64,000 bases of DNA from an uncultured Bacteroidales bacterium (GTDB lineage: Bacteria; Bacteroidota; Bacteroidia; Bacteroidales; JAADJA01). Where the stretch lies: assembly GCA_963749345.1 (NCBI GenBank), contig CAVVMO010000001.1, positions 1,011,336-1,075,335 on the forward strand, read 5' to 3'. Below, one piece after another: positions 2,089 to 31,429 of this stretch. The translations under genes and the position numbers were made by a program. The stretch's first letter is position 1. Each line of letters starts with the position of its first letter. The notes beneath the pieces were generated by a model. That model saw only the letters and a list, made by a program, of their open reading frames with translations. It had not been told where the DNA came from and searched no databases.

Positions 2089-2123
2089 TGAAACTTGAAA
2101 CTTTGAACTTGAAACCTTGAACT
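2089..2123. repeat. Five tandem degenerate heptamers (TGAAACT TGAAACT TTGAACT TGAAACC TTGAACT) abutting the stop codon of the 2127..5441 gene
   Basis: Direct reading of 2089-2123. The stop codon (tta on the + strand) is at 2127-2129. Confidence 0.8.
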
Positions 2124-2126
2124 AAA

Positions 2127-5100
2127 TTATTCAATATTCCATTCCGGTAACCTTCCGGGTGTCCAGGGTGCTCCAATGCTTTCAAGCTCTTTTTCAATCG
2201 CAGGAAGTTCATTTTCAAAAATATCTTTAAGTTCATTCAGAATCGGCGGGAACTCCTCTTTTAGAATTTCATAACCATCCTTCTGGGTTTGAGTAATTCC
2301 AGACGTAGAACTGTAATGAGTATAAATAATGGAATAAAGCCTGTCGTTGATGGAAGGTATGGCCGGCCAGTTCTCTTCCTGGCTTGCCTTTGCTTCCTGT
2401 CCGTTATATTTCCATAGGATGTTGTCCATTTGTGTCTCCACTTTTTCAATTTTCTTTATCAATTCTATTCCGGCTTCGGGTGTACGTTGTGCTGCTTGCT
2501 TATCGCTTCTGATTCTTTCCATTAGATCGTTGGCAAAATCTTCAGTTCCCCTGATCACGCGGCCGAGTTCTGAAAGCTTTTGCTGGAAAGCAACAAGTTC
2601 TGCCCTGTCTTCTGCAGGAAGCGTTGTATTGTTCAACGGTTTTGCAATAAAATCAACCGGGCCAGCCAGTTCTTTCAACTCACCCCTGAAAACCTGCGCC
2701 ATCGATATCGTATATTTACCGGGAAGAACAAACATTCCATCGCCACCCATACTCATCGGATCAAATTTTTCTTCAACCCTGACCGGTGATGCAGATGGAT
2801 ACCTGAAGTTCCAGGTCAACCGGCTGATGCCTTCGCTTATACTTTTAGTTAGTTTTCTGACAATTTCTCCCTTTTCATCTTTAATCGTAAAAACCAGGTA
2901 GGGTTCTATTTCATTTTCCTCGGCGCGCAACTCATCCATAGTCGGTGTAGGGATGGGCTTTTTATCTTTGGCCAGTTCCTTTTCCTTTTCGCGCCTCTCA
3001 TCCTTCAGGGTTTTTGGTGTTTCCTTCACATAATAGGTAAATGTAGCACCGTATGACGGATTCTCAGCAATATAAAGATTCGAACCACTGCCATAACCAC
3101 CTCTATATTTTTGAACATACATCAATGCATCTTTGATTGGAAAAATATAAGCGGTTGAATCAAGAAGTTCCTTGTTTAATTTTCGCAATGGTGAATAATC
3201 ATCAAGAATGTAAAATCCGCGTCCGAAAGTGGCTAGTACGAGATCACTCTCTCTTTCCTGTATCGCAATGTCTTTAACTGAAACTGCAGGAATTCCCGAT
3301 TTAAGCTGTGTCCAGATTTTACCACCGTCTATTGTAAAGAAACAACCAAACTCGGTTCCCACGAACAATAAATCAGGATTGATGAAATCCTGCTGGATGG
3401 TGTGAACTGTTCCTTTATCAGGAAGATTTCCTGCAATGGATGTCCATGATTTCCCTTTATCTGTGCTTTTCAGCAAATACGGTTTGAAATCATCTCTGAG
3501 AATATTATCAAAGGATGCAAAAACAATGTTTTCATCAAACTTTGAAGCAAGGATATCACTCACATAAGTATTGGCAGGAACACCCGGGAAGGATTCGCAT
3601 TTTCTCCAGCTTCCGCCGGCATCTTCAGTTACCTGGATCAATCCGTCATCAGTTCCGATAAAGAGCAGGTTTTCTTTCACTTTTGATTCATCAATGGAAA
3701 CAGCCATGCCATAAAGCGAGGTCGAAACATCTTTTGCAACAGCATCAATGCTCCAAAACTGATCCATCACTGGCCAGGTATTCCTGTCGATCTTTGCAGT
3801 AATGTCATCACTTATAACTTTCCATGATTGTCCCCGGTCATCGCTCCTGAATATCTTGTTGGCGCCCATGTATAGCCGTGTGGGCGAATGCGGGCTTAGC
3901 ATATAAGGTGTATTCCAGTTCCATTTGTAGCTCTCCTCCCCTTTCCTCGGTTGTGGTTTGATGTTGATTGCTTCCCCGCTCTTCTTATCGTAACGATAAA
4001 TGTTTCCATACTGGTAAGCAGAATAGACAATATCGGGATTTGTAGGCTCGATTGCCTGAAAGAATCCATCGCCACCTAAGGTAGTAACCCATTCGCAACT
4101 GGAAACACCATCAGTATTTATGTTTCGGGAAGGTCCTCCAAAGCTGCTGTTGTCCTGTGTTCCGCCATAAACCCAGTAAAAAGGTTCGGTATTGTCGACT
4201 GCAACCCTGTAAAACTGAGTTACCGGCAGGTTGGTTTTATGAATATAGGTTGCGCCCCTATCAAAAGTTTCATAAACACCACCATCACCCCCGATCATAA
4301 AATGACGGGTATCTGTTGGATCGATCCATAATGCATGGTCATCCACGTGCCGGTCATTATTCCCCATGCTCTGCCATGTTTTACCTCCGTCCTCTGTAAA
4401 AGCCGAAACGGTTTCAGTGGAATAGACTTTATTTGCATTCACTGGGTCGCAATATATTTCATTATAATATTGGCCGGCATCATGATGGTCGCTCATTTTT
4501 TCCCAGGATTCTCCCATATCTGTCGAACGATAGAACCCGCTATTGTCCATGGCTGCTTCAATGATGGCATAAACAATATTGGGATCAACCGGTGAAATAG
4601 CGATTCCCATTCCTCCTTTATCCACTCCCGGAATCCCTGATTCCAGTTTGCGCCAGTTTTTACCGCCGTCTTCTGATTTATAAACGGCTGTTTCGGGTCC
4701 TCCACCAATTTTGGTATGGACATGACTTCTTCTTTGCTCTGAAGTTGCAAACATAATATCCGGATTGCACGGATGAATAATTACATTGTTTACACCTGTA
4801 TGCTCCGAAATATTCAACACCTTTTCCCAGGTTTTTCCGCCATCTGCAGTTTTATAAAGTCCTCTTTCACCACCCGGACCCCAAACGGAGCCTTCAGCTG
4901 CGACAAAAACTATATCTGTATTCCGGGGATCAATGGCAATCATACCGATCTGGCGTGATTCTTTCAAACCCATGTTTTTCCATGATTTGCCGCCGTCAGT
5001 GGTTTTATAAACTCCATCACCATAGCCAAGTGCCCGTTGATGATTATTTTCACCGGTACCAGCCCAAACTACATTTGGATTTTTTGGATCCATCTCCAGA

Positions 5101-5441
5101 CAACCGATCGCATAGGCGCCATAGTTATCAAAGACAGGCTCGAATGTGGTACCGTTATTAACTGTTTTCCAGATATGGCCTGATGCCACTGCCACATAAT
5201 ATTCACTGTGATTTTTTGGATTGACTGCAAAATCAGCAATCCTGCCTGAAGTGAAAGCCGGTCCGATACTGCGGAATTTTAATCCGCTTACATGGCTCGT
5301 TTTTATCGTATCGTTTTTTTTGTCGTCATCTTTTCCTTTTCCGGCAAACAGGGAATTCGACATAAACAGGAATGACAGTAATATAGCCATTCCTAAAGAT
5401 AGGTTAACTAACCTTTGTTTTGATTGTGTTGATTTTTTCAT
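2127..5441 (-). CDS. Secreted BNR/Asp-box repeat protein, sortilin/VPS10-like beta-propeller family
   Basis: 1104-aa ORF with an N-terminal signal peptide. It has many S/T-x-D-x-G-x-[ST]-W boxes (TTDGGKSWK, TADGGKTWE, SEDGGKNWR, STDMGESWE, TEDGGKTWQ, SDDRGQSWK, TEDAGGSWR, STDKGKSWT, TIDGGKIWT). It is a clear paralog of 17086..20178. Confidence 0.8.
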   Translation of the reverse strand: MKKSTQSKQRLVNLSLGMAILLSFLFMSNSLFAGKGKDDDKKNDTIKTSHVSGLKFRSIGPAFTSGRIADFAVNPKNHSEYYVAVASGHIWKTVNNGTTFEPVFDNYGAYAIGCLEMDPKNPNVVWAGTGENNHQRALGYGDGVYKTTDGGKSWKNMGLKESRQIGMIAIDPRNTDIVFVAAEGSVWGPGGERGLYKTADGGKTWEKVLNISEHTGVNNVIIHPCNPDIMFATSEQRRSHVHTKIGGGPETAVYKSEDGGKNWRKLESGIPGVDKGGMGIAISPVDPNIVYAIIEAAMDNSGFYRSTDMGESWEKMSDHHDAGQYYNEIYCDPVNANKVYSTETVSAFTEDGGKTWQSMGNNDRHVDDHALWIDPTDTRHFMIGGDGGVYETFDRGATYIHKTNLPVTQFYRVAVDNTEPFYWVYGGTQDNSSFGGPSRNINTDGVSSCEWVTTLGGDGFFQAIEPTNPDIVYSAYQYGNIYRYDKKSGEAINIKPQPRKGEESYKWNWNTPYMLSPHSPTRLYMGANKIFRSDDRGQSWKVISDDITAKIDRNTWPVMDQFWSIDAVAKDVSTSLYGMAVSIDESKVKENLLFIGTDDGLIQVTEDAGGSWRKCESFPGVPANTYVSDILASKFDENIVFASFDNILRDDFKPYLLKSTDKGKSWTSIAGNLPDKGTVHTIQQDFINPDLLFVGTEFGCFFTIDGGKIWTQLKSGIPAVSVKDIAIQERESDLVLATFGRGFYILDDYSPLRKLNKELLDSTAYIFPIKDALMYVQKYRGGYGSGSNLYIAENPSYGATFTYYVKETPKTLKDERREKEKELAKDKKPIPTPTMDELRAEENEIEPYLVFTIKDEKGEIVRKLTKSISEGISRLTWNFRYPSASPVRVEEKFDPMSMGGDGMFVLPGKYTISMAQVFRGELKELAGPVDFIAKPLNNTTLPAEDRAELVAFQQKLSELGRVIRGTEDFANDLMERIRSDKQAAQRTPEAGIELIKKIEKVETQMDNILWKYNGQEAKASQEENWPAIPSINDRLYSIIYTHYSSTSGITQTQKDGYEILKEEFPPILNELKDIFENELPAIEKELESIGAPWTPGRLPEWNIE

Positions 5442-8104: not shown

Positions 8105-8785
8105 ATGTATTATAGTTTTATGAAAGAAAACAATGGTTTGGCCTGGATGTCATTGGTCATTATTACTTTGCTCATTTCTTCGTGTCGTCATGAACCAGTA
8201 TTAATGGAAGGCACGCCTCCAGTTTGTTTCCAGGATCAGGTTTTACCTTTAATCCGATCGAATTGTGCAATTCCGGGTTGTCATGATGCTGGTTCCGATG
8301 AAGGTCCAACACTGACTGATTATGATAATATTTCACAATATGTTGAGCCGGGAAAACCCAATCACAGTGAACTCTATAAAGTGATAACGACTACCTCAGT
8401 GCTGGTAGAATTTATGCCTCCCTCACCCAGGGAACCATTAACCCAAAATCAGATCGACCTTATAAGTATTTGGATTTTACAGGGTGCTGAGAACAATTCC
8501 TGCTTATTATTCCCTTGCGATACACTGAATGTGACTTTTGCAGCAGATATTTTTCCAATTATCGAAAATTATTGCAAAGGTTGTCATAGCGGTAGTAATC
8601 CATCCGGAGGTATTGGCCTCGAAAACTATGATCAAATTGCAGCTGCAGGATTAAATGGCAAACTTTATGGGTCAGTCAGTTTTGCATCCGGATATGTTCC
8701 AATGCCATACCAGGGGGATATGTTACCTGAATGCTATATTGCTATGATAAAAATATGGGTTGATGCAGGAGCACCTAATAATTAA
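8105..8785 (+). CDS. Lipoprotein with two tandem planctomycete-cytochrome-c-like (PSCyt1-type) units
   Basis: Lipobox LLISSC. Two units fit the pattern F..V.P(L/I)I...C..CH....G..L..Y..I...L....MP...L....I..W...GA.NN. Unit 2 has a canonical CKGCH, while unit 1 has CAIPGCH (a C-x4-CH spacing). Confidence 0.55.
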   Translation: MYYSFMKENNGLAWMSLVIITLLISSCRHEPVLMEGTPPVCFQDQVLPLIRSNCAIPGCHDAGSDEGPTLTDYDNISQYVEPGKPNHSELYKVITTTSVLVEFMPPSPREPLTQNQIDLISIWILQGAENNSCLLFPCDTLNVTFAADIFPIIENYCKGCHSGSNPSGGIGLENYDQIAAAGLNGKLYGSVSFASGYVPMPYQGDMLPECYIAMIKIWVDAGAPNN

Positions 8786-8830
8786 TCAAGAACAATTTTT
8801 TTTCTTCACCAATTTCCTGAATATCACAAT

Positions 8831-10138
8831 CTAATTCCCTGAAAGGCCTTTCTTATAAACTGAAATTGCTCTCATTCTGGCAAATTGATGGTCAACAACA
8901 GGATTTGGGTAGGCACTTGTTTGTAATTCAGGAACCCACTTTTTGATATACTTCTTTTCAGCATCAAACTTTTTCATTTGCTCGGTTGGATTAAAAATCC
9001 TGAAATATGGCGCAGCATCACACCCTGTGCCCGCAGCCCACTGCCAGTTACCGTTGTTGGATGATAATTCATAATCCAGCAATTTCCTGGCAAAATAACC
9101 TTCGCCCCAGCGCCAGTCGATCAGCAGATGTTTACAAAGAAAGCTTGCAACAACCATCCGAACCCGGTTGTGCATAAAGCCAGTAGTGTTTAGCGCCCTC
9201 ATTCCGGCATCCACCATAGGATAACCGGTTTTCCCCCCGCACCATTGATGAAATTGATCTTCATCGTTAATCCATTCAATTTTATCATAAGCAGGTTTGA
9301 AACTTTCCCTGACAACTTTGGGAAAGTGATAAAGTATCTGCATGAAAAATTCACGCCACACAAGTTCTTTTAAAAAGGTTCTATTTGCAAAAGAATCTGC
9401 CTTTATGATAAGCTCCCGAATGCTTATCGTCCCGAATCTCAAATGAGTTCCTGCCATCGAAGTTCCATCTATAAAAGGAAAATTCCTGGTTTGTTCGTAC
9501 TTTTCAATCCGGTCGCTATCCAGTCGTGCCTCTGGAATACTTATATCACTTTTAACAAATCCGATTTGCCTCAGTTCAGGAACTTCAGACCAGGGCAATT
9601 GAATAAAGTTTTGAAAATATTTTGCTGTATCAAAAATTCGAACAGGGTTTTCAGAGAGTCTTGACATCCACTTATTCATATAAGGTGTGTAAACCGTATA
9701 AGGCTTTCCATCATCCTTTACTACCTCATCCTTTTCAAAAATCACGTGGTCTTTAAATGTTCGAGAACTTATTTTTTGGGTTTGGAGAAAGTCGAATATT
9801 TGCTGGTCCCTCCTGATTGAATATGGCTCATAATCATGGTTGGTATAGACTTCCAAAATGTCGTATTCATCGACAAGGTTTTTCCAAACGGTAAGAGGTT
9901 CGCCATGTTTTACTATTAAGCGACTTCCAGTGCTTTTTAACTTTTCATTAATCTTTTTAAGTTCTTCGAATATGAAGGTCACCCGCGGATCATTTTTTTC
10001 CAGCTCGTTCAGAATATTCGTATCGAAGACAAAAACCGGTAAAACCGGCAATCCGGATTTCAAAGCATGGAAAAGACCGGCATTATCATTCAACCGCAGA
10101 TCGCGGCGAAACCAGAAAATATTAATGGAATTCTTCAA
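8831..10138 (-). CDS. Deoxyribodipyrimidine photolyase / cryptochrome family protein
   Basis: 435-aa ORF. The N-terminus is INIFWFRRDLRLNDNAGL, and the FAD-binding C-terminus reads GYPMVDAGMRALNTTGFMHNRVRMVVASFL...WGEGYF...LLDYELSSNNGNWQW. Confidence 0.9.
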   Translation of the reverse strand: MKNSINIFWFRRDLRLNDNAGLFHALKSGLPVLPVFVFDTNILNELEKNDPRVTFIFEELKKINEKLKSTGSRLIVKHGEPLTVWKNLVDEYDILEVYTNHDYEPYSIRRDQQIFDFLQTQKISSRTFKDHVIFEKDEVVKDDGKPYTVYTPYMNKWMSRLSENPVRIFDTAKYFQNFIQLPWSEVPELRQIGFVKSDISIPEARLDSDRIEKYEQTRNFPFIDGTSMAGTHLRFGTISIRELIIKADSFANRTFLKELVWREFFMQILYHFPKVVRESFKPAYDKIEWINDEDQFHQWCGGKTGYPMVDAGMRALNTTGFMHNRVRMVVASFLCKHLLIDWRWGEGYFARKLLDYELSSNNGNWQWAAGTGCDAAPYFRIFNPTEQMKKFDAEKKYIKKWVPELQTSAYPNPVVDHQFARMRAISVYKKGLSGN

Positions 10139-11798: not shown

Positions 11799-11802
11799 TT
11801 TT

Positions 11803-11837
11803 CGATTTACGATTTACGATTTACAAATTAGGAATTA
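11803..11837. repeat. Five tandem heptamers (CGATTTA x3, CAAATTA, GGAATTA) filling the atpA-atpG spacer
   Basis: Direct reading. The last unit overlaps the atpA stop codon. Confidence 0.8.
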
Positions 11838-14559: not shown

Positions 14560-14609
14560 TCAAATAATAAACCTTTACACCACAGCCAACCGCTATGATG
14601 TAAAGGTTT
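14560..14609 (-). terminator. Strong intra-operon hairpin downstream of atpE (possible attenuator or partial terminator)
   Basis: An 11-bp stem (AAACCTTTACA at 14569-14579 with TGTAAAGGTTT at 14599-14609) is followed on the minus strand by TTATTATTTG. Confidence 0.45.
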
Positions 14610-14885: not shown

Positions 14886-14948
14886 AAAACCAAATTCTAA
14901 AACCAAAACTCCAAACCCCGAACATCGAACTTTGAACTTCAAACTGCT
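14886..14948. repeat. Nine tandem degenerate heptamers (AAAACCA AATTCTA AAACCAA AACTCCA AACCCCG AACATCG AACTTTG AACTTCA AACTGCT) filling the atpB-atpE spacer
   Basis: Direct reading. The AAC phase is kept across all units, and the last unit overlaps the atpB stop codon. Confidence 0.8.
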
Positions 14949-22894: not shown

Positions 22895-23242
22895 TTAATC
22901 CAGATCAAGGGAAATGCTTATACATTCTTTAACCAGGCCTATCAAATCATCGGGAAGAGTTCCAATTTTTTTTATCAATCTTTTATTATCAATTGCCCTG
23001 ATCTGATCGATCATTATATCGCAATTCTCCTGCAAATTAGCCATGCCTTTCTTTAAATGCACCCTCAATATATCTGCCTCTTTTTCAATGTTTGTTGTAA
23101 TCGGGCATACGATTGTTGAAGGATGAGGAATTTTATTCAGAAGATTAGTCTGAACAATCAATACAGGTCTTGTTTTTCCGGGTTCAGTTCCTTGTTGCGG
23201 GTTCAAATCGGCAATCCAGATTTCAAATTGTTTAATCGCCAT
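22895..23242 (-). CDS. Type II toxin-antitoxin system toxin, PemK/MazF family
   Basis: 115-aa ORF with the family-typical FEIWIADLNPQQGTEPGKTRPVLIVQTN. It overlaps the upstream antitoxin ORF by 11 nt. Confidence 0.85.
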   Translation of the reverse strand: MAIKQFEIWIADLNPQQGTEPGKTRPVLIVQTNLLNKIPHPSTIVCPITTNIEKEADILRVHLKKGMANLQENCDIMIDQIRAIDNKRLIKKIGTLPDDLIGLVKECISISLDLD

Positions 23243-23462
23243 AATCTAATCTTTCAAATTCATAAAGAACGGCTAAAGAATCCTTTTTCACAAGATCAGA
23301 TTCGCTTTTAAGTTTTTTCTCAAGGATAATTCTTCGCTGATGGCGGTTATAATAGTCGATCGCCTCGTTAATATATCGATTCCTTGTTTTTTTGACCCGG
23401 GTAAGGATTTTCTCAGTTTCCCCAAAGATGGAGTCGTCAATTTTTAATGATACAGTTTTCAT
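23232..23462 (-). CDS. Cognate antitoxin, ribbon-helix-helix-like
   Basis: 76-aa ORF. The N-terminus is a beta-strand plus two helices (KTVSLKIDDSIFGETEKIL...NRYINEAIDYY). It is translationally coupled to the MazF-like gene. Confidence 0.7.
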   Translation of the reverse strand: MKTVSLKIDDSIFGETEKILTRVKKTRNRYINEAIDYYNRHQRRIILEKKLKSESDLVKKDSLAVLYEFERLDYGD

Positions 23463-23650: not shown

Positions 23651-24238
23651 TTAATCACACTTTACCGTTAACCGGACATCATTAAATATTTTCCATACTG
23701 CATGGTCAAAGGCCTTTGGTGAGATATCGCATTGGATAATTTGTTTATTCCTTTTAGGGCAGAAAGACTCCTTCACCTTGATGTTGAGTGTCATATAATC
23801 CTTGGTAAAAAAGGCATCATACACCCTCATTTTTCCCGAAAAGCCTGCATTGGTTTTGACGAATAAACCGAGCGTTCTTTCCAATGGGTTCGAATTTATG
23901 GTATCTGCCTGATTATTTAAATCTACTCCCATAAGCCCATCATAGTAAAGGTTAAAGGATTCGGTAAGTTTACTTTCTGTCAGGGCTGAATCCATTTCAA
24001 TGTACCAGGCAAAAGAGTAAGCCCAAAATTCCTGACTTGTTGAGTCGGACCATCCCGGAGAAAATCTCAGGTCTTCAAATCCAACAAAATCAATAGCCGG
24101 AGCAAAACTTAAAGGAAAAGGCAATATTTCACGCTGCCAATTATCCGGTGCGCTGAGAATACTTTCATTTTCCTGACCATAAGTGAGCATATTGCCAACT
24201 GTAAATAAAAGTAGAATTAAAACAGACTTTTTGTACAT
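23651..24238 (-). CDS. Secreted hypothetical protein
   Basis: The ORF is trimmed to the internal ATG at 24236-24238, which gives a signal peptide (MYKKSVLILLLFTVGNMLTYGQ). No family was recognised. Confidence 0.5.
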   Translation of the reverse strand: MYKKSVLILLLFTVGNMLTYGQENESILSAPDNWQREILPFPLSFAPAIDFVGFEDLRFSPGWSDSTSQEFWAYSFAWYIEMDSALTESKLTESFNLYYDGLMGVDLNNQADTINSNPLERTLGLFVKTNAGFSGKMRVYDAFFTKDYMTLNIKVKESFCPKRNKQIIQCDISPKAFDHAVWKIFNDVRLTVKCD

Positions 24239-24508
24239 AATGTAATTTTCAAATGATCTATAACTTCTTAGTGTTTTATCCGACGTCCCCCCAAGCCAGC
24301 GGTTCAAAGATAGGGAAAAAGCAGGAAGATGGGGAAATAATTATTAAAATACCACAGCGTGCTTAATTTCACTATGCGGTATTTGTTCTATTGCCTGAAC
24401 ATTCTAATCGCTGATCCATTTAACAATTGAAGTGTAATAAAAATATGTAATTTTGGCTCAATTAATTTGAATCATCAAGCAAATACAAATTATTAAATTC
24501 AAATCATT

Positions 24509-24883
24509 ATGGCACAAAAATCTGAAAGAAAGGTTCCATTGTCAATCCAGTTAGCAATAGTTGCAAATATTTTGCTGTTTTTTTCCTTTGGTATCCGCTA
24601 CCTCATTATTAAAGATACAGGTAACTTTATAGGCTGGATGCTGATCATCGCCGGGTTAACAAATATCATTCTGCTGATATTTAATTTCAACAAGAAGAAT
24701 AAATTTTTTATGGTGCTCAACCTGGTTTATGCGGCTATCACTTTTATTGTCTTAATGGATTTTTGGGATTCAGGCTTTTTCAAGTATCTTTGGCTTATAA
24801 TTACACTATACTATCTAATTTCAGGCCTATATTTGATGTACAAGCTCAATAAGGAAAAGGAAAAGGCCACAACGGCAAGCTAA
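24509..24883 (+). CDS. Small integral membrane protein (4 predicted TM segments), hypothetical
   Basis: 124-aa ORF with four hydrophobic stretches. Confidence 0.5.
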   Translation: MAQKSERKVPLSIQLAIVANILLFFSFGIRYLIIKDTGNFIGWMLIIAGLTNIILLIFNFNKKNKFFMVLNLVYAAITFIVLMDFWDSGFFKYLWLIITLYYLISGLYLMYKLNKEKEKATTAS

Positions 24884-24891
24884 GCATTAGA

Positions 24892-24954
24892 CAGTTGGCA
24901 GTTGGCAGTTGGCAGTCGGCAGTCAGCAATTGGCAATGGACAGTCGGCAATTGG
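24892..24954. repeat. Nine tandem heptamers of the CAGTTGG type
   Basis: The units are CAGTTGG x3, CAGTCGG, CAGTCAG, CAATTGG, CAATGGA, CAGTCGG, CAATTGG. Confidence 0.9.
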
Positions 24955-24961
24955 AAATCCC

Positions 24962-25024
24962 GGAACTCAGAACCCGGAACCTTGAACCTTGAACTTCGAA
25001 CTTTGAACCTCAAACCCTGAACCT
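24962..25024. repeat. Nine tandem heptamers of the NGAACYY type
   Basis: The units are GGAACTC AGAACCC GGAACCT TGAACCT TGAACTT CGAACTT TGAACCT CAAACCC TGAACCT. The array ends 2 nt before the pdxH stop codon. Confidence 0.9.
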
Positions 25025-25026
25025 CC

Positions 25027-25662
25027 TCAAGGCTGTAGTCTTTCAATTTTCCATCCGGTTTCGGTCCGTGAATAGAGTATCCTGTCGTGAAGGCGGTTGG
25101 GCCTGCCCTGCCAGAATTCAATTTTCTCTGGAATAACCCTGTAACCTCCCCAATAATCCGGCCTGGGAATATCCTTATCATAATTTTCTTTCAGGAATTC
25201 CACCCAAAGTTCTTCGAGTTGCTGGCGGCTTTCAACAGGTTGGCTCTGCTTCGAAACGATGGCGCTCATTTTACTTTCCAAAGGACGGGAATTAAAATAT
25301 TCATCCGATTCAACCGCTGATACCTTTTCTACTTTTCCTTCAATCCGGATCTGGCGTTCAAGCTCTTTCCAGAAAATCAGCAATGCGGCAACAGGATTTT
25401 TTTCAATTTCAGTTGCTTTGCGGCCCTTATAATTGGTATAGAAAACGAATCCCTTCTCATCAAATCCTTTCAGAAGCACTGTCCGGGCCGAAGGTTTTCC
25501 ATCAGGAGTAGCCGTTGCCAAAGTCATGGCATTCACTTCTGAAAGTCCGGACTTTACAGCACCTTCAAACCACTGACTAAACAAGATCATTGGATTGGAT
25601 TCCAGCAATTCCTCCTTCAATTCATCTTTACTATATTCGCTCCTTATTTTTTTAATATCCAT
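25027..25662 (-). CDS. pdxH: Pyridoxamine 5'-phosphate oxidase
   Basis: The ORF is trimmed to [10 protein letters not shown]. Conserved blocks are [37 protein letters not shown] and [14 protein letters not shown]. Confidence 0.9.
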
Positions 25663-25712
25663 TCCTCGGGGTAAAATAATAATTTTGAAACCGAAAGTAA
25701 ACAAAATTCCGG

Positions 25713-26375
25713 ATGGGAAAGTTTGCAATTTTTAGAAAAAAAGAGAGATGGTCAACCACATGGCTGGGTAAAGTCCTTATTCTTACATTATTTATCGTTT
25801 TAGCCTGGTTGTTCGTAAAGAATAGTTACTCCTTCCTTGCACAAAATTCACACCTCAACTCCGAAATCATGATCCTGGAAGGATTTCTGCCTGATTTCGC
25901 CATTGAGGAATCCATAAAAATTTTCAATGATGGGAATTACAAGCTTATGATCATAAGTGGTAAGAAGATGATTAAAGGCGCTTCCCTTGTCCCTTATGAA
26001 AACGATGGTTTATACACAGCTGCTATTCTTGTTAAAATGGGATTCGACTCCACCCTGATAAAAGTGATATGTCTTGAAAGCGATGTAATGAAGGACCGTA
26101 CTTATGCTTCTGCAACAGCTATAACGGATTGGATGAGCCAAAATGGATTGAACCCTGAAACCGTAAATGTTGTTTCACTCGGTTGCCATTCGCGGCGAAG
26201 CCGGTTGCTGTTTGAAAAAGCTTTTAAAGACGAAATTAAAATCGGAATTATCTCTGTTCAGGATATTGGTTATGACCCGGAAGTTTGGTGGAAATCAAGC
26301 TATGGGTTTAAAACTGTATTAAATGAAGTATTTGCTTTGACTTATACCTATTTGTTTTTCCGGCCACCGGATTAA
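25713..26375 (+). CDS. DUF218 (YdcF/SanA/ElyC) family protein
   Basis: 220-aa ORF with an N-terminal TM anchor and a DUF218-like core (...[19 protein letters not shown]...). Confidence 0.6.
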
Positions 26376-26485
26376 CTAGGAATAATTCTTTTGTTACTTT
26401 TGCGCACCTTTGAAGAAAGAGAAGAAATGCTGAATTACTGATTTTGAATAATGATTCCTGATCCCTAAAACTCTTAACCTGAGAA

Positions 26486-26932
26486 TTGGATAACAAGATA
26501 AAAATAAAGAATAAAAAAGCCTTTTTCGAATATTTTATATCTGATAAATTCGTAGCAGGCATAGTCCTGACAGGCACTGAAATAAAATCCATTCGTGAAG
26601 GCAAGGTGAGTCTTGAGGAAGCCTATTGCGCGTTTAAAGAGGATGAGCTTTTTGTGATCAATATGCACATTGCAGAATATAAATTCGGAACTTACAACAA
26701 CCATGAGCCTAAACATGATAGAAAATTGCTTTTAAACCGGAAGGAATTAAAAAAACTTAATAATAAGATTAAAGAAAAAGGATTTACCATCATTCCGACG
26801 GTTCTTTTCGTTAACGAAAAAGGACTGGCCAAACTTGAAATCGGCCTGGCGAAAGGTAAAAAGCTTTATGACAAACGGGAATCCATCAAAACAAAAGATA
26901 ACAAAAGAGATTTGGAACGAGGCAGGTTTTAA
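26486..26932 (+). CDS. smpB: SsrA-binding protein
   Basis: 148-aa ORF containing [32 protein letters not shown]...[11 protein letters not shown]. Confidence 0.95.
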
Positions 26933-27052
26933 GCAATGTGTTTCTCTTAATCCCTTTGATATAAAGCATTTGAGTGTTAAATAATGTTAAAAGAAAATAG
27001 TCGGTTTGTTTAATTAGACTTTGATACTTTTCTTTGCAAAAAATTTGAACCT

Positions 27053-30301: not shown

Positions 30302-30345
30302 TTTTAGATTTACGATTTTTGGTTTGAAATAAAAAATTTATTAAC

Positions 30346-31341: not shown

Positions 31342-31394
31342 GAAGGAAATTTGAAAATTGAAATTTGAGGTCACTGCAAAAAATAGTCCCTTCA

Positions 31395-31429
31395 AACTTT
31401 GAACTTTGAACCCTGAACTTTAAACCCTT
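31395..31429. repeat. Five tandem heptamers (AACTTTG AACTTTG AACCCTG AACTTTA AACCCTT) abutting the start of the next gene
   Basis: Direct reading. They are the same motif type as at 14921-14948 and 24962-25024. Confidence 0.8.

Follow-up and report, generated by a model that had tools for sequence, protein, structure and literature searches.

The 143-nt spacer between two convergent genes, pdxH and the gene for a 124-aa predicted membrane protein, occupies positions 24884-25026 of the 64,000-nt stretch of uncultured Bacteroidales DNA analyzed here (hereafter the window; G+C 39.4%) and consists almost entirely of two adjoining arrays of different heptamers. With a probability of roughly 0.7, we regard it as a compound heptanucleotide variable number tandem repeat (VNTR) of the class that comprises the short tandemly repeated repetitive (STRR) sequences and the long simple sequence repeats (SSRs), renewed by slippage, tolerated beside open reading frame (ORF) boundaries and transcribed as unstructured untranslated region (UTR). 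The arrays slip by whole units among relatives, heptamer arrays are dispersed over the window and lie flush with ORFs, and the spacer RNA lacks structure; the arrays probably have no specific function of their own.

Two heptamer arrays fill the convergent spacer

The spacer is bounded on the left by the gene for the 124-aa protein (24509..24883, + strand, ending in TAA), in which no Pfam family was matched, and on the right by pdxH (25027..25662, - strand, stop TGA at 25027-25029), whose exact protein, a pyridoxamine 5'-phosphate oxidase, carries the PNPOx domains PF01243, PF10590 and PF12766 of Pfam. Read on the + strand, it opens with a non-repeat linker of 8 nt, GCATTAGA (24884..24891), between the stop of the 124-aa gene and array A. 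This array comprises nine CAGTTGG-type heptamers (CA[R]T[Y]GG, 24892..24954; CCAACTG in the sense of pdxH) and is followed by the transition unit AAATCCC (24955..24961) at the junction, by array B with nine NGAACYY heptamers (24962..25024; AGGTTCA-type units in the pdxH sense), and finally by CC. Array A begins 8 nt past the stop of the 124-aa gene and array B 2 nt past the pdxH stop, and in both the G-rich strand is the sense strand of the respective gene.

Tandem Repeats Finder (TRF) reported period 7 with 9.0 copies, 78% matches, a score of 63 and the consensus CAGTTGG at 24892-24954, and period 7/14 with about 10 copies and the consensus GAACCTT at 24959-25024. The sequence and TRF thus bear out the coordinates and the content that an earlier, sequence-only reading of this DNA had given for the spacer and its two arrays. 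Across the window, a lag-7 match fraction of at least 0.72 over 56 nt is found in the focal spacer only, and when lags 4-15 were scanned, lag 14 was the only other lag to attain 0.72 over 56 nt. Three-unit degenerate patterns of the GAACYY type matched the window 17 times, against 0.05 matches expected from dinucleotide shuffles, and those of the CARTYGG type 9 times, against 0.02. A chance origin of the arrays can be dismissed, because none of the 100 shuffles equalled the observed counts; the spacer therefore contains head-to-tail 7-nt copies well above chance, as a heptanucleotide SSR or VNTR does. A search of the 64-kb window for a second CAGTTGG array found none. The phase common to both arrays, previously offered as evidence, is uninformative and has no evidential weight, because any adjacent period-7 motif can always be rotated into register.

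Whole-unit gain and loss at the orthologous spacer

Orthologous spacers were recovered by metagenome and exact-protein look-ups from independent assemblies (JGI, ENA and Logan). Alleles are written in the pdxH sense as the number of GGTTCA-type units, with the transition unit counted, plus the number of CCAACTG-type units. The units were aligned by hand; a MAFFT alignment of the spacers was unsuitable, as it placed a single 7-nt gap and spurious substitutions resulted. The 124-aa gene adjoins pdxH also in the relatives L001, L081, L082, L174-L177 and L447.

The arrays are shared by eight orthologous spacers in other metagenomes, seven of which vary among one another in copy number. The window allele (pdxH 100%) has 10 + 9 units; L081 and L170, from two different samples (pdxH 97%), have 8 + 12; L082 (93%) has 9 + 12; and L176 (92%) has 9 + 5. 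L174 (92%) has 5 + about 6 units with a non-repeat junction, L175 (91%) has 5 + 9 units with an IS3-family insertion sequence (IS) in the junction, and L177 (85%) has 7 + 0, with a non-repeat C/T-rich tract in place of the CCAACTG array. At 78% pdxH identity, L447 carries an amplified spacer of 650 nt with three to four higher-order copies of the composite, and L446 has no array and a different downstream neighbour. The best match among species representatives, L001, a metagenome-assembled genome of an uncultured Bacteroidales bacterium whose pdxH is 73% identical, keeps the gene order of the window (the convergent pair of the 124-aa gene and pdxH, together with smpB and an ABC transporter) and has about 4 degenerate TGGTTYR units directly after the stop.

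Over all alleles, GGTTCA-type units number 5-10 and CCAACTG-type units 0-12, and the three closest alleles measure 143, 150 and 157 nt, so that they differ by exact multiples of 7. This whole-unit length polymorphism among related genomes, with seven distinct alleles, is what characterizes a VNTR. Because copy number shifts in 7-nt steps, units are evidently gained and lost by slipped-strand events. The comparison of array length across strains, which the sequence-only reading had recommended, thus yielded the VNTR behavior, and the slippage that it had named as a candidate mechanism, borne out by the closest alleles and the unit counts.

Parts of the spacer other than the arrays are shared as well. 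The linker GCATTAGA is kept in L081 and L170 and, in the form GCAATAGA, in L082 and L176, and the junction of GGGATTT with CCAATTG (pdxH sense) is common to the window, L081, L082 and L176 and recognizable in L447. The spacer of L447 (L447:8545-9196, JGI 3300042991; ~650 nt) is a small satellite between two convergent genes, taken up almost entirely by a composite of a GGTTYCA array, the junction, a TGCCRAC array and a connector, whose copies at 8546-8652, 8725-8831 and 8939-9045 are 87-93% identical. In L175 (L175:10678-12250, ENA ERZ25039459 contig_56647), the IS3-family element lies exactly at the array junction; it contains rve transposase and HTH_Tnp_1 ORFs, has the terminal inverted repeats TGACCTATCATGA.../...TCATGATAGGxCA and is flanked by a 3-bp duplication, TAT. 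The uninterrupted version of its target site is present in L174.

Within the arrays, unit variation is concentrated at a few positions and consists mostly of transitions. Position counts over 53 and 52 units from seven alleles, which are non-independent since the units are copies of one another, gave an invariant GTTC core in AGGTTCA, positions 3 and 5 of which do not vary, and almost confined the variation of CCAACTG to its positions 3 and 5. In nearly all alleles, decay is strongest in the units at the inner junction, whereas those adjacent to the ORFs conform to the consensus.

Heptamer arrays are dispersed and abut ORFs with a fixed polarity

The GAACYY pattern occurs at four loci of the window, always on the + strand (chance about 1 in 8) and each time 0-2 nt from an ORF boundary. 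Besides array B, about 5 units at 2089..2124 lie 2 nt before the stop of a BNR/sortilin-domain gene (2127..5441, - strand), 8 units decaying into GTTTT at 14891..14946 abut the atpB stop (14947) in the atp operon, and 5 units at 31394..31428, identical in the relatives L174 and L175, abut the TTG start (31429) of a GDSL-lipase gene. The spacer of this last array also holds GAAATTT x3.3 (31346..31368, + strand), 4 nt past the stop of a DUF4340 gene. A TTTACGA-type array (11799..11834, + strand; TAAATCG in the gene sense) fills the gap between the atpA stop and the atpG start, and a degenerate array of the same motif type lies at 30302-30330, where L174 and L175 have an array of 5.9 TTTACGA-type units at the orthologous site. 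In total, four GAACYY arrays and at least four other heptamer arrays are dispersed over intergenic sites of the 64 kb, so that the expectation of further arrays elsewhere in the genome was confirmed by three GAACYY arrays and several others within the window alone.

The autocorrelation check proposed together with that expectation also came out positive on the 64-kb window: with the focal spacer left out, the intergenic match fractions at lags 7, 14 and 21 were 0.306, 0.299 and 0.303 against a baseline of ~0.287, values nearly equalled at lags 6, 15 and 16 (0.305, 0.298 and 0.302). Coding DNA gave a period-3 signal alone. The period-7 arrays in the window and its relatives are intergenic in all cases but one, as are all 64 arrays of at least four units in 160 unrelated pdxH loci, and 7 is the commonest TRF period in 80 genome loci.

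The arrays are also oriented. The G-rich strand of either focal array is the sense strand of the gene that precedes it, and all six G/C-skewed arrays of the window abut an ORF on the 5' side of their own G-rich strand, five of them at a stop codon in sense and one at a start codon in antisense. Among the G/C-skewed arrays of the 160 pdxH loci, 43 of 62 lie nearer the ORF 5' of the G-rich strand and 19 of 62 lie nearer the one on the other side, and convergent spacers elsewhere (for example in L116, L142 and L151) bear two arrays with a strand switch like that of the focal spacer. Leading and lagging strands could not be read from the GC skew, which over the 64 kb tracks gene orientation. Heptamer arrays stand directly after the pdxH stop in several unrelated lineages among L001-L160, namely in Coleofasciculus (L009 and L015), in Bacteroidales L063 (ATAAAGT x12), in L043, L091 and L094 (AATTACG) and in L019; by a rough estimate this is at most a mild excess over the density of intergenic arrays.

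The atpB-atpE gap was compared in nine relatives in which the AtpE protein is identical. It takes the form of 41 nt with no array, of 54-55 or 67 nt with AAAAGTW units, or of 78 nt with AAGTTCR units, and the 22 nt ahead of the atpE start, which in the window extend from the end of the array to that start as a conserved leader, are conserved in all the relatives compared. The variable gap therefore indicates that arrays grow out of local seeds, that any one site can do without them and that they stand between genes transcribed together. Their presence within the atp operon and beside a start codon argues against a role as dedicated terminators. The unconventional terminator or insulator that the sequence-only reading had considered is consequently not supported as a general function, given GAACYY arrays in the atpB-atpE gap and at the GDSL-lipase start codon.

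Two further ideas about the motifs were rejected. GAACYY is not a special, widely conserved motif: it matched at least 120 loci in viral contigs, but the permuted control AGCAYY x4 likewise matched at least 120, and heptamer arrays of many motifs are therefore simply common. Nor is the composite a dispersed or mobile module, since GAACYY arrays were nearby in 0 of 28 viral contigs with CARTYGG x4. High-G+C viral contigs (L299, L300, L304, L306-L308, L313, L317 and L322) carry CAGTCGG/CAATTGG arrays, typically with an inverted array (CCGACTG...) 20-90 nt further on; these pairs make up long heptamer-built hairpins, often at gene ends, in contrast to the unpaired arrays of the window.

The spacer RNA is unstructured and has no intrinsic terminator

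The spacer RNA folds worse than all 200 of 200 dinucleotide shuffles on both strands (z = +2.6), and the CAGTTGG and GAACYY motifs are mutually non-complementary. A scan of both strands of 24884-25026 for a hairpin followed by a T-tract found none, in agreement with the sequence-only reading, which had noted the lack of a classical terminator here; the combination of a G+C-rich hairpin and a U-tract that makes an intrinsic terminator is thus not present in the spacer. Array-array pairing or a hidden hairpin terminator was accordingly rejected, as the folding was worse than in every shuffle and no terminator-like site was present. Strong intrinsic terminators do occur at other gene ends of the window (14609-14569, 10195-10170, 33049-33020, 49324-49296 and 57358-57330), so that their absence from the spacer is real and does not reflect an organism-wide trait. 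The Rfam 15 families, searched at the gathering threshold over the whole window, gave no match.

The only local structure of the spacer is a weak 10-pair hairpin, AGGUUCCGGG-loop-UCCGGGAUUU, in the pdxH-sense RNA at the array junction (24955..24982, - strand), which appears in both the minimum free energy and the centroid structure and has no U-tract. The block that forms it, GGGTTCT GAGTTCC, is deleted in L081 and L170 and absent in L174 and L175. The distal array of each transcript is unstructured, with 32-37% C and 16-19% G over 63 nt, and the C-G skews of the two distal arrays rank at the 95th and 2nd percentiles among the 63-nt windows of the whole stretch. One of the terminators listed above, at 14569-14609 (- strand), is a very strong 18-pair hairpin with a T-rich tail just downstream of atpE and before atpF, and resembles an internal terminator or attenuator of the atp operon.

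Relation to described heptamer repeats

The focal spacer belongs to a repeat class that is already described (PMC4679880, PMC4692102), which the sequence-only reading had failed to identify, and its placement rule is published as well. MacGregor (2015, PMC4679880) reported intergenic direct heptamer repeats in Beggiatoaceae, cyanobacteria and five Bacteroidetes. In the Bacteroidetes, long arrays shared a spacer with other heptamer repeats, strains differed by indels in 7-nt increments, and arrays were absent from the orthologous spacer of close relatives. According to the summary of Mrazek (2007) given there, heptanucleotides are the most abundant unit of long SSRs. Rehm et al. (2015, PMC4692102) located heptamer repeats on the coding strand, no more than 50 bp from stop codons, and described their functional role as still to be elucidated. 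What the present locus adds is an allele series at one orthologous site, two arrays that behave as one amplifiable composite, and an ORF-flush polarity in which the youngest units are those beside the ORFs.

Among the closest known counterparts of the element are the STRRs of cyanobacteria, heptanucleotides reportedly described by Mazel et al. in 1990, with the STRR1-3 motifs CCCCAGT, TTGGTCA and CAACAGT. Like the focal arrays, STRRs and long SSRs are intergenic tandem 7-nt units that form dispersed motif families, vary in copy number among strains and have no established function; unlike them, STRRs reside in cyanobacterial hosts, whereas the host here is an uncultured Bacteroidales lineage. 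The STRR1-3 motifs differ from CAGTTGG and TGAACCT, and the focal locus is a conserved composite of two motifs. With neither the cyanobacterial host nor one of the defining motifs, the element is classed as STRR-like and not as an STRR in the strict sense.

The repeats of Rehm et al., GGGAATC in Xanthomonas and GGGGA(C/T)T in Nostoc, are overwhelmingly intergenic and obey the positional rule that the focal arrays also follow, in sense and 8 and 2 nt after the stops for arrays A and B. They are transcribed in UTRs, occur in pairs between convergent ORFs and have no settled function, in all of which we liken them to the focal arrays. However, they contain tracts of G3-G4 and form G-quadruplexes in vitro, whereas the focal units have at most GG; for a quadruplex-forming heptamer, at least 3 G per unit in four or more units are expected, which the focal arrays lack. 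Their paired arrays repeat one motif in inverted orientation and can form a hairpin, whereas the focal arrays are of unrelated motifs and do not pair. The TAACTGA repeats (PMC4679880) resemble the focal arrays as intergenic direct heptamers with mixed arrays in Gramella, Aequorivita and Elizabethkingia. In Beggiatoaceae, however, this different motif is placed mostly just upstream of start codons in the forward direction, suggesting a translational role, whereas the window arrays mostly follow stop codons. Phase-variable contingency loci also have slippage-prone tandem repeats of strain-variable copy number, but these lie in a promoter spacer, a 5'-UTR or a reading frame. Because the focal arrays lie between two stop codons, a change in their length cannot switch the flanking genes in any of the known ways, and they do not constitute a contingency locus.

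Heptanucleotide repeats, the commonest long SSRs of bacteria, have been known since 1990 and have neither an established function nor a generating rule. The locus provides a natural series, from 100% to 73% pdxH identity, in which the arrays range from missing or vestigial to 5-12 units in length and are in other lineages split by an IS or expanded into a 650-nt satellite. It displays 7-nt turnover, ORF-flush placement with a fixed G-rich polarity and the freshest units at the ORFs, and thereby constrains models of origin. These regularities make the ideas of a terminator and of a binding platform testable in a cultivable relative. In annotation, such spacers should be flagged as VNTRs, not as terminators or small ORFs; they can serve as strain markers and they break short-read assemblies.

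Mechanism and alternative explanations

In the explanation we favor, slipped-strand mispairing in replication would create and renew the arrays, and unequal recombination or exchange of the whole composite would produce the amplification in L447. Arrays would persist because the DNA just outside an ORF boundary tolerates them. They would be transcribed as a structure-free 3'-UTR or intercistronic tract and would not be dedicated terminators, in keeping with the IS3-family element that L175 accommodates at the junction. Any function would most likely be generic, that of an unstructured single-stranded spacer and possibly of a loading platform for single-strand-binding factors.

A different account, which we think unlikely, is a bidirectional hairpin-free terminator that depends on Rho. 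Each transcript would cross its own G-rich array and then the complement of the other array, and this distal C-rich, G-poor array, with YC every 7 nt, would serve as a rut site at which antisense read-through is blocked. Bacteroidota have Rho, the spacer has no intrinsic terminator while other gene ends of the window have strong ones, its RNA is less structured than all shuffles, and the C and G contents of the distal arrays would suit such a site. Even L177, where a C/T-rich non-repeat tract (pdxH sense) replaces the repeat, keeps the compositional layout. Against this, the C-G skews reach no further than the 95th and 2nd percentiles, members of the GAACYY family are found in the atp operon and next to a start codon, some alleles have as few as 5 units (35 nt), and the element of L175 is split by an IS. 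Cyanobacteria, to our knowledge, have no Rho, and Rho therefore cannot account for the whole repeat class, since the placement rule holds there too. The rule of position and strand is the same in that phylum (PMC4692102).

Alternatively, the arrays could form a multivalent platform that a single-strand-binding protein reads in a 7-nt register, on the mRNA 3'-UTR or on transiently single-stranded DNA; cold-shock or other OB-fold, S1-like and RRM-1 proteins would be candidates, with effects on mRNA stability, on translation of the neighbor or on DNA transactions. We likewise consider this improbable, although several observations would fit it: the GTTC core and the CA.T.GG positions persist over the 53 and 52 units of the seven alleles, the GGTTCA array has a low substitution rate, GAACYY stands flush with ORF ends at four loci, and the spacer RNA is unstructured. 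There are also precedents, as CspB is cited in PMC4679880 as binding heptamer repeats with one protein per unit, and the Bacteroides RRM-1 protein RbpB binds single-stranded regions (PMC11697453). However, relatives whose AtpE is identical have a different motif, or lack an array, in the atpB-atpE gap, and the conserved positions may stem from a few amplified founder variants. The GAACYY loci moreover differ in orientation, three following a stop in sense and one preceding a start in antisense, and such differences among loci in the orientation of arrays relative to genes disfavor a single reader at the RNA level. Two-quartet G-quadruplexes with 5-nt loops are marginally stable. That the ORF-proximal arrays act on the sense strand as weak quadruplexes of the form (GG N5)n is very improbable, even though both arrays repeat a GG at 7-nt intervals on the strand that is sense for the neighboring gene and the rule of position and strand resembles that of published quadruplex-forming heptamers (PMC4692102). 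The G3-G4 tracts on which the published class depends are missing from the consensus units, where no run reaches three G, and related arrays of the lineage (AAAAGTA, TAAATCG and GAAATTT) have no GG at all. The least credible explanation is an assembly error, a small repetitive peptide or a read-through extension. Two ORFs do traverse the arrays, one of 41 aa (24895..25020, + strand) and one of 111 aa (24846..25181, - strand), and a short-read contig breaks 48 nt past the pdxH stop; the ORFs are, however, a by-product of stop-free repeat units. A coding role is excluded because length differences of 7 or 14 nt between alleles, neither divisible by 3, would shift any reading frame, and an assembly artefact is excluded because the arrays recur in eight independent assemblies. 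The comparison of alleles thus refutes this explanation, and the artefact that the sequence-only reading had named as grounds for abandoning its interpretation did not materialize, with the same arrays in at least eight independent JGI, ENA and Logan assemblies.

Signs of constraint on the GGTTCA array

Several observations weigh against a VNTR that is simply tolerated. When the window is compared with L082, a single substitution falls within the 65 alignable nt of the GGTTCA array, whereas divergence is 19% at fourfold sites and 21.7% over the last 60 nt of pdxH. In tests of the substitution counts, the deficit relative to fourfold sites is significant (P about 1e-4 to 2e-5). The GGTTCA array is kept at the pdxH stop in every lineage from 100% to 85% identity, and the composite is found again at 78%. 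One motif occupies four loci on one strand, flush with ORF ends, a pattern not expected from purely random seeding, and positions 3 and 5 of AGGTTCA never vary, although the units are non-independent copies. To judge by these alignments, a constraint on the GGTTCA array is suggested.

Against L081, however, the conservation of the array relative to other intergenic DNA was not significant (P = 0.09), and the divergence of window 24200-27040 from L082 is a mosaic: pdxH differs by 8.5%, the pdxH/orf220 intergenic region by 0/50, orf220 by 26% and smpB by 21%, and no alignment is possible upstream of the 124-aa gene. Such mosaic divergence around pdxH suggests recombination between lineages, and the low divergence of the array from L082 may reflect a recent recombinational transfer of the spacer. 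With P = 0.09 against intergenic DNA, mosaic divergence and few lineages, we do not claim purifying selection from the substitution counts.

It is conceivable, though in our view unlikely, that the composite is a selected, hairpin-free polar element at ORF boundaries that is recognized by a single-strand factor in a 7-nt register and insulates convergent genes from mutual read-through, with Rho loading on the C-rich strand or an OB-fold or RRM protein on the G/U-rich strand. The ORF-flush, strand-polar placement of bacterial heptamer repeats would then gain a functional basis, and the retention from 100% to 78% identity, the few substitutions against ~19% neutral divergence and the 650-nt amplification would reflect selection and not drift.

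Other observations in the region

Relative to window 24265-24294, L081 has an extra segment of ~1.08 kb (L081:4892-5970), missing from the window, between the region upstream of the 124-aa gene and a 218-aa ORF, and this segment codes for an FRG-domain protein of 291 aa (Pfam PF08867, E = 1.6e-20). In the ENA assemblies L161, L163 and L164, atpA and other genes are each called as several ORFs, although L162, L165, L168 and the window have them intact; the splits are probably assembly frameshift errors, and small indels there need care. A PemK/MazF-type toxin gene (Pfam E = 1.4e-29) lies at 22895-23462 of the window (- strand) and is overlapped by an upstream ORF of 76 aa, the likely antitoxin, which would make a putative type II toxin-antitoxin pair 1.4 kb from the spacer.

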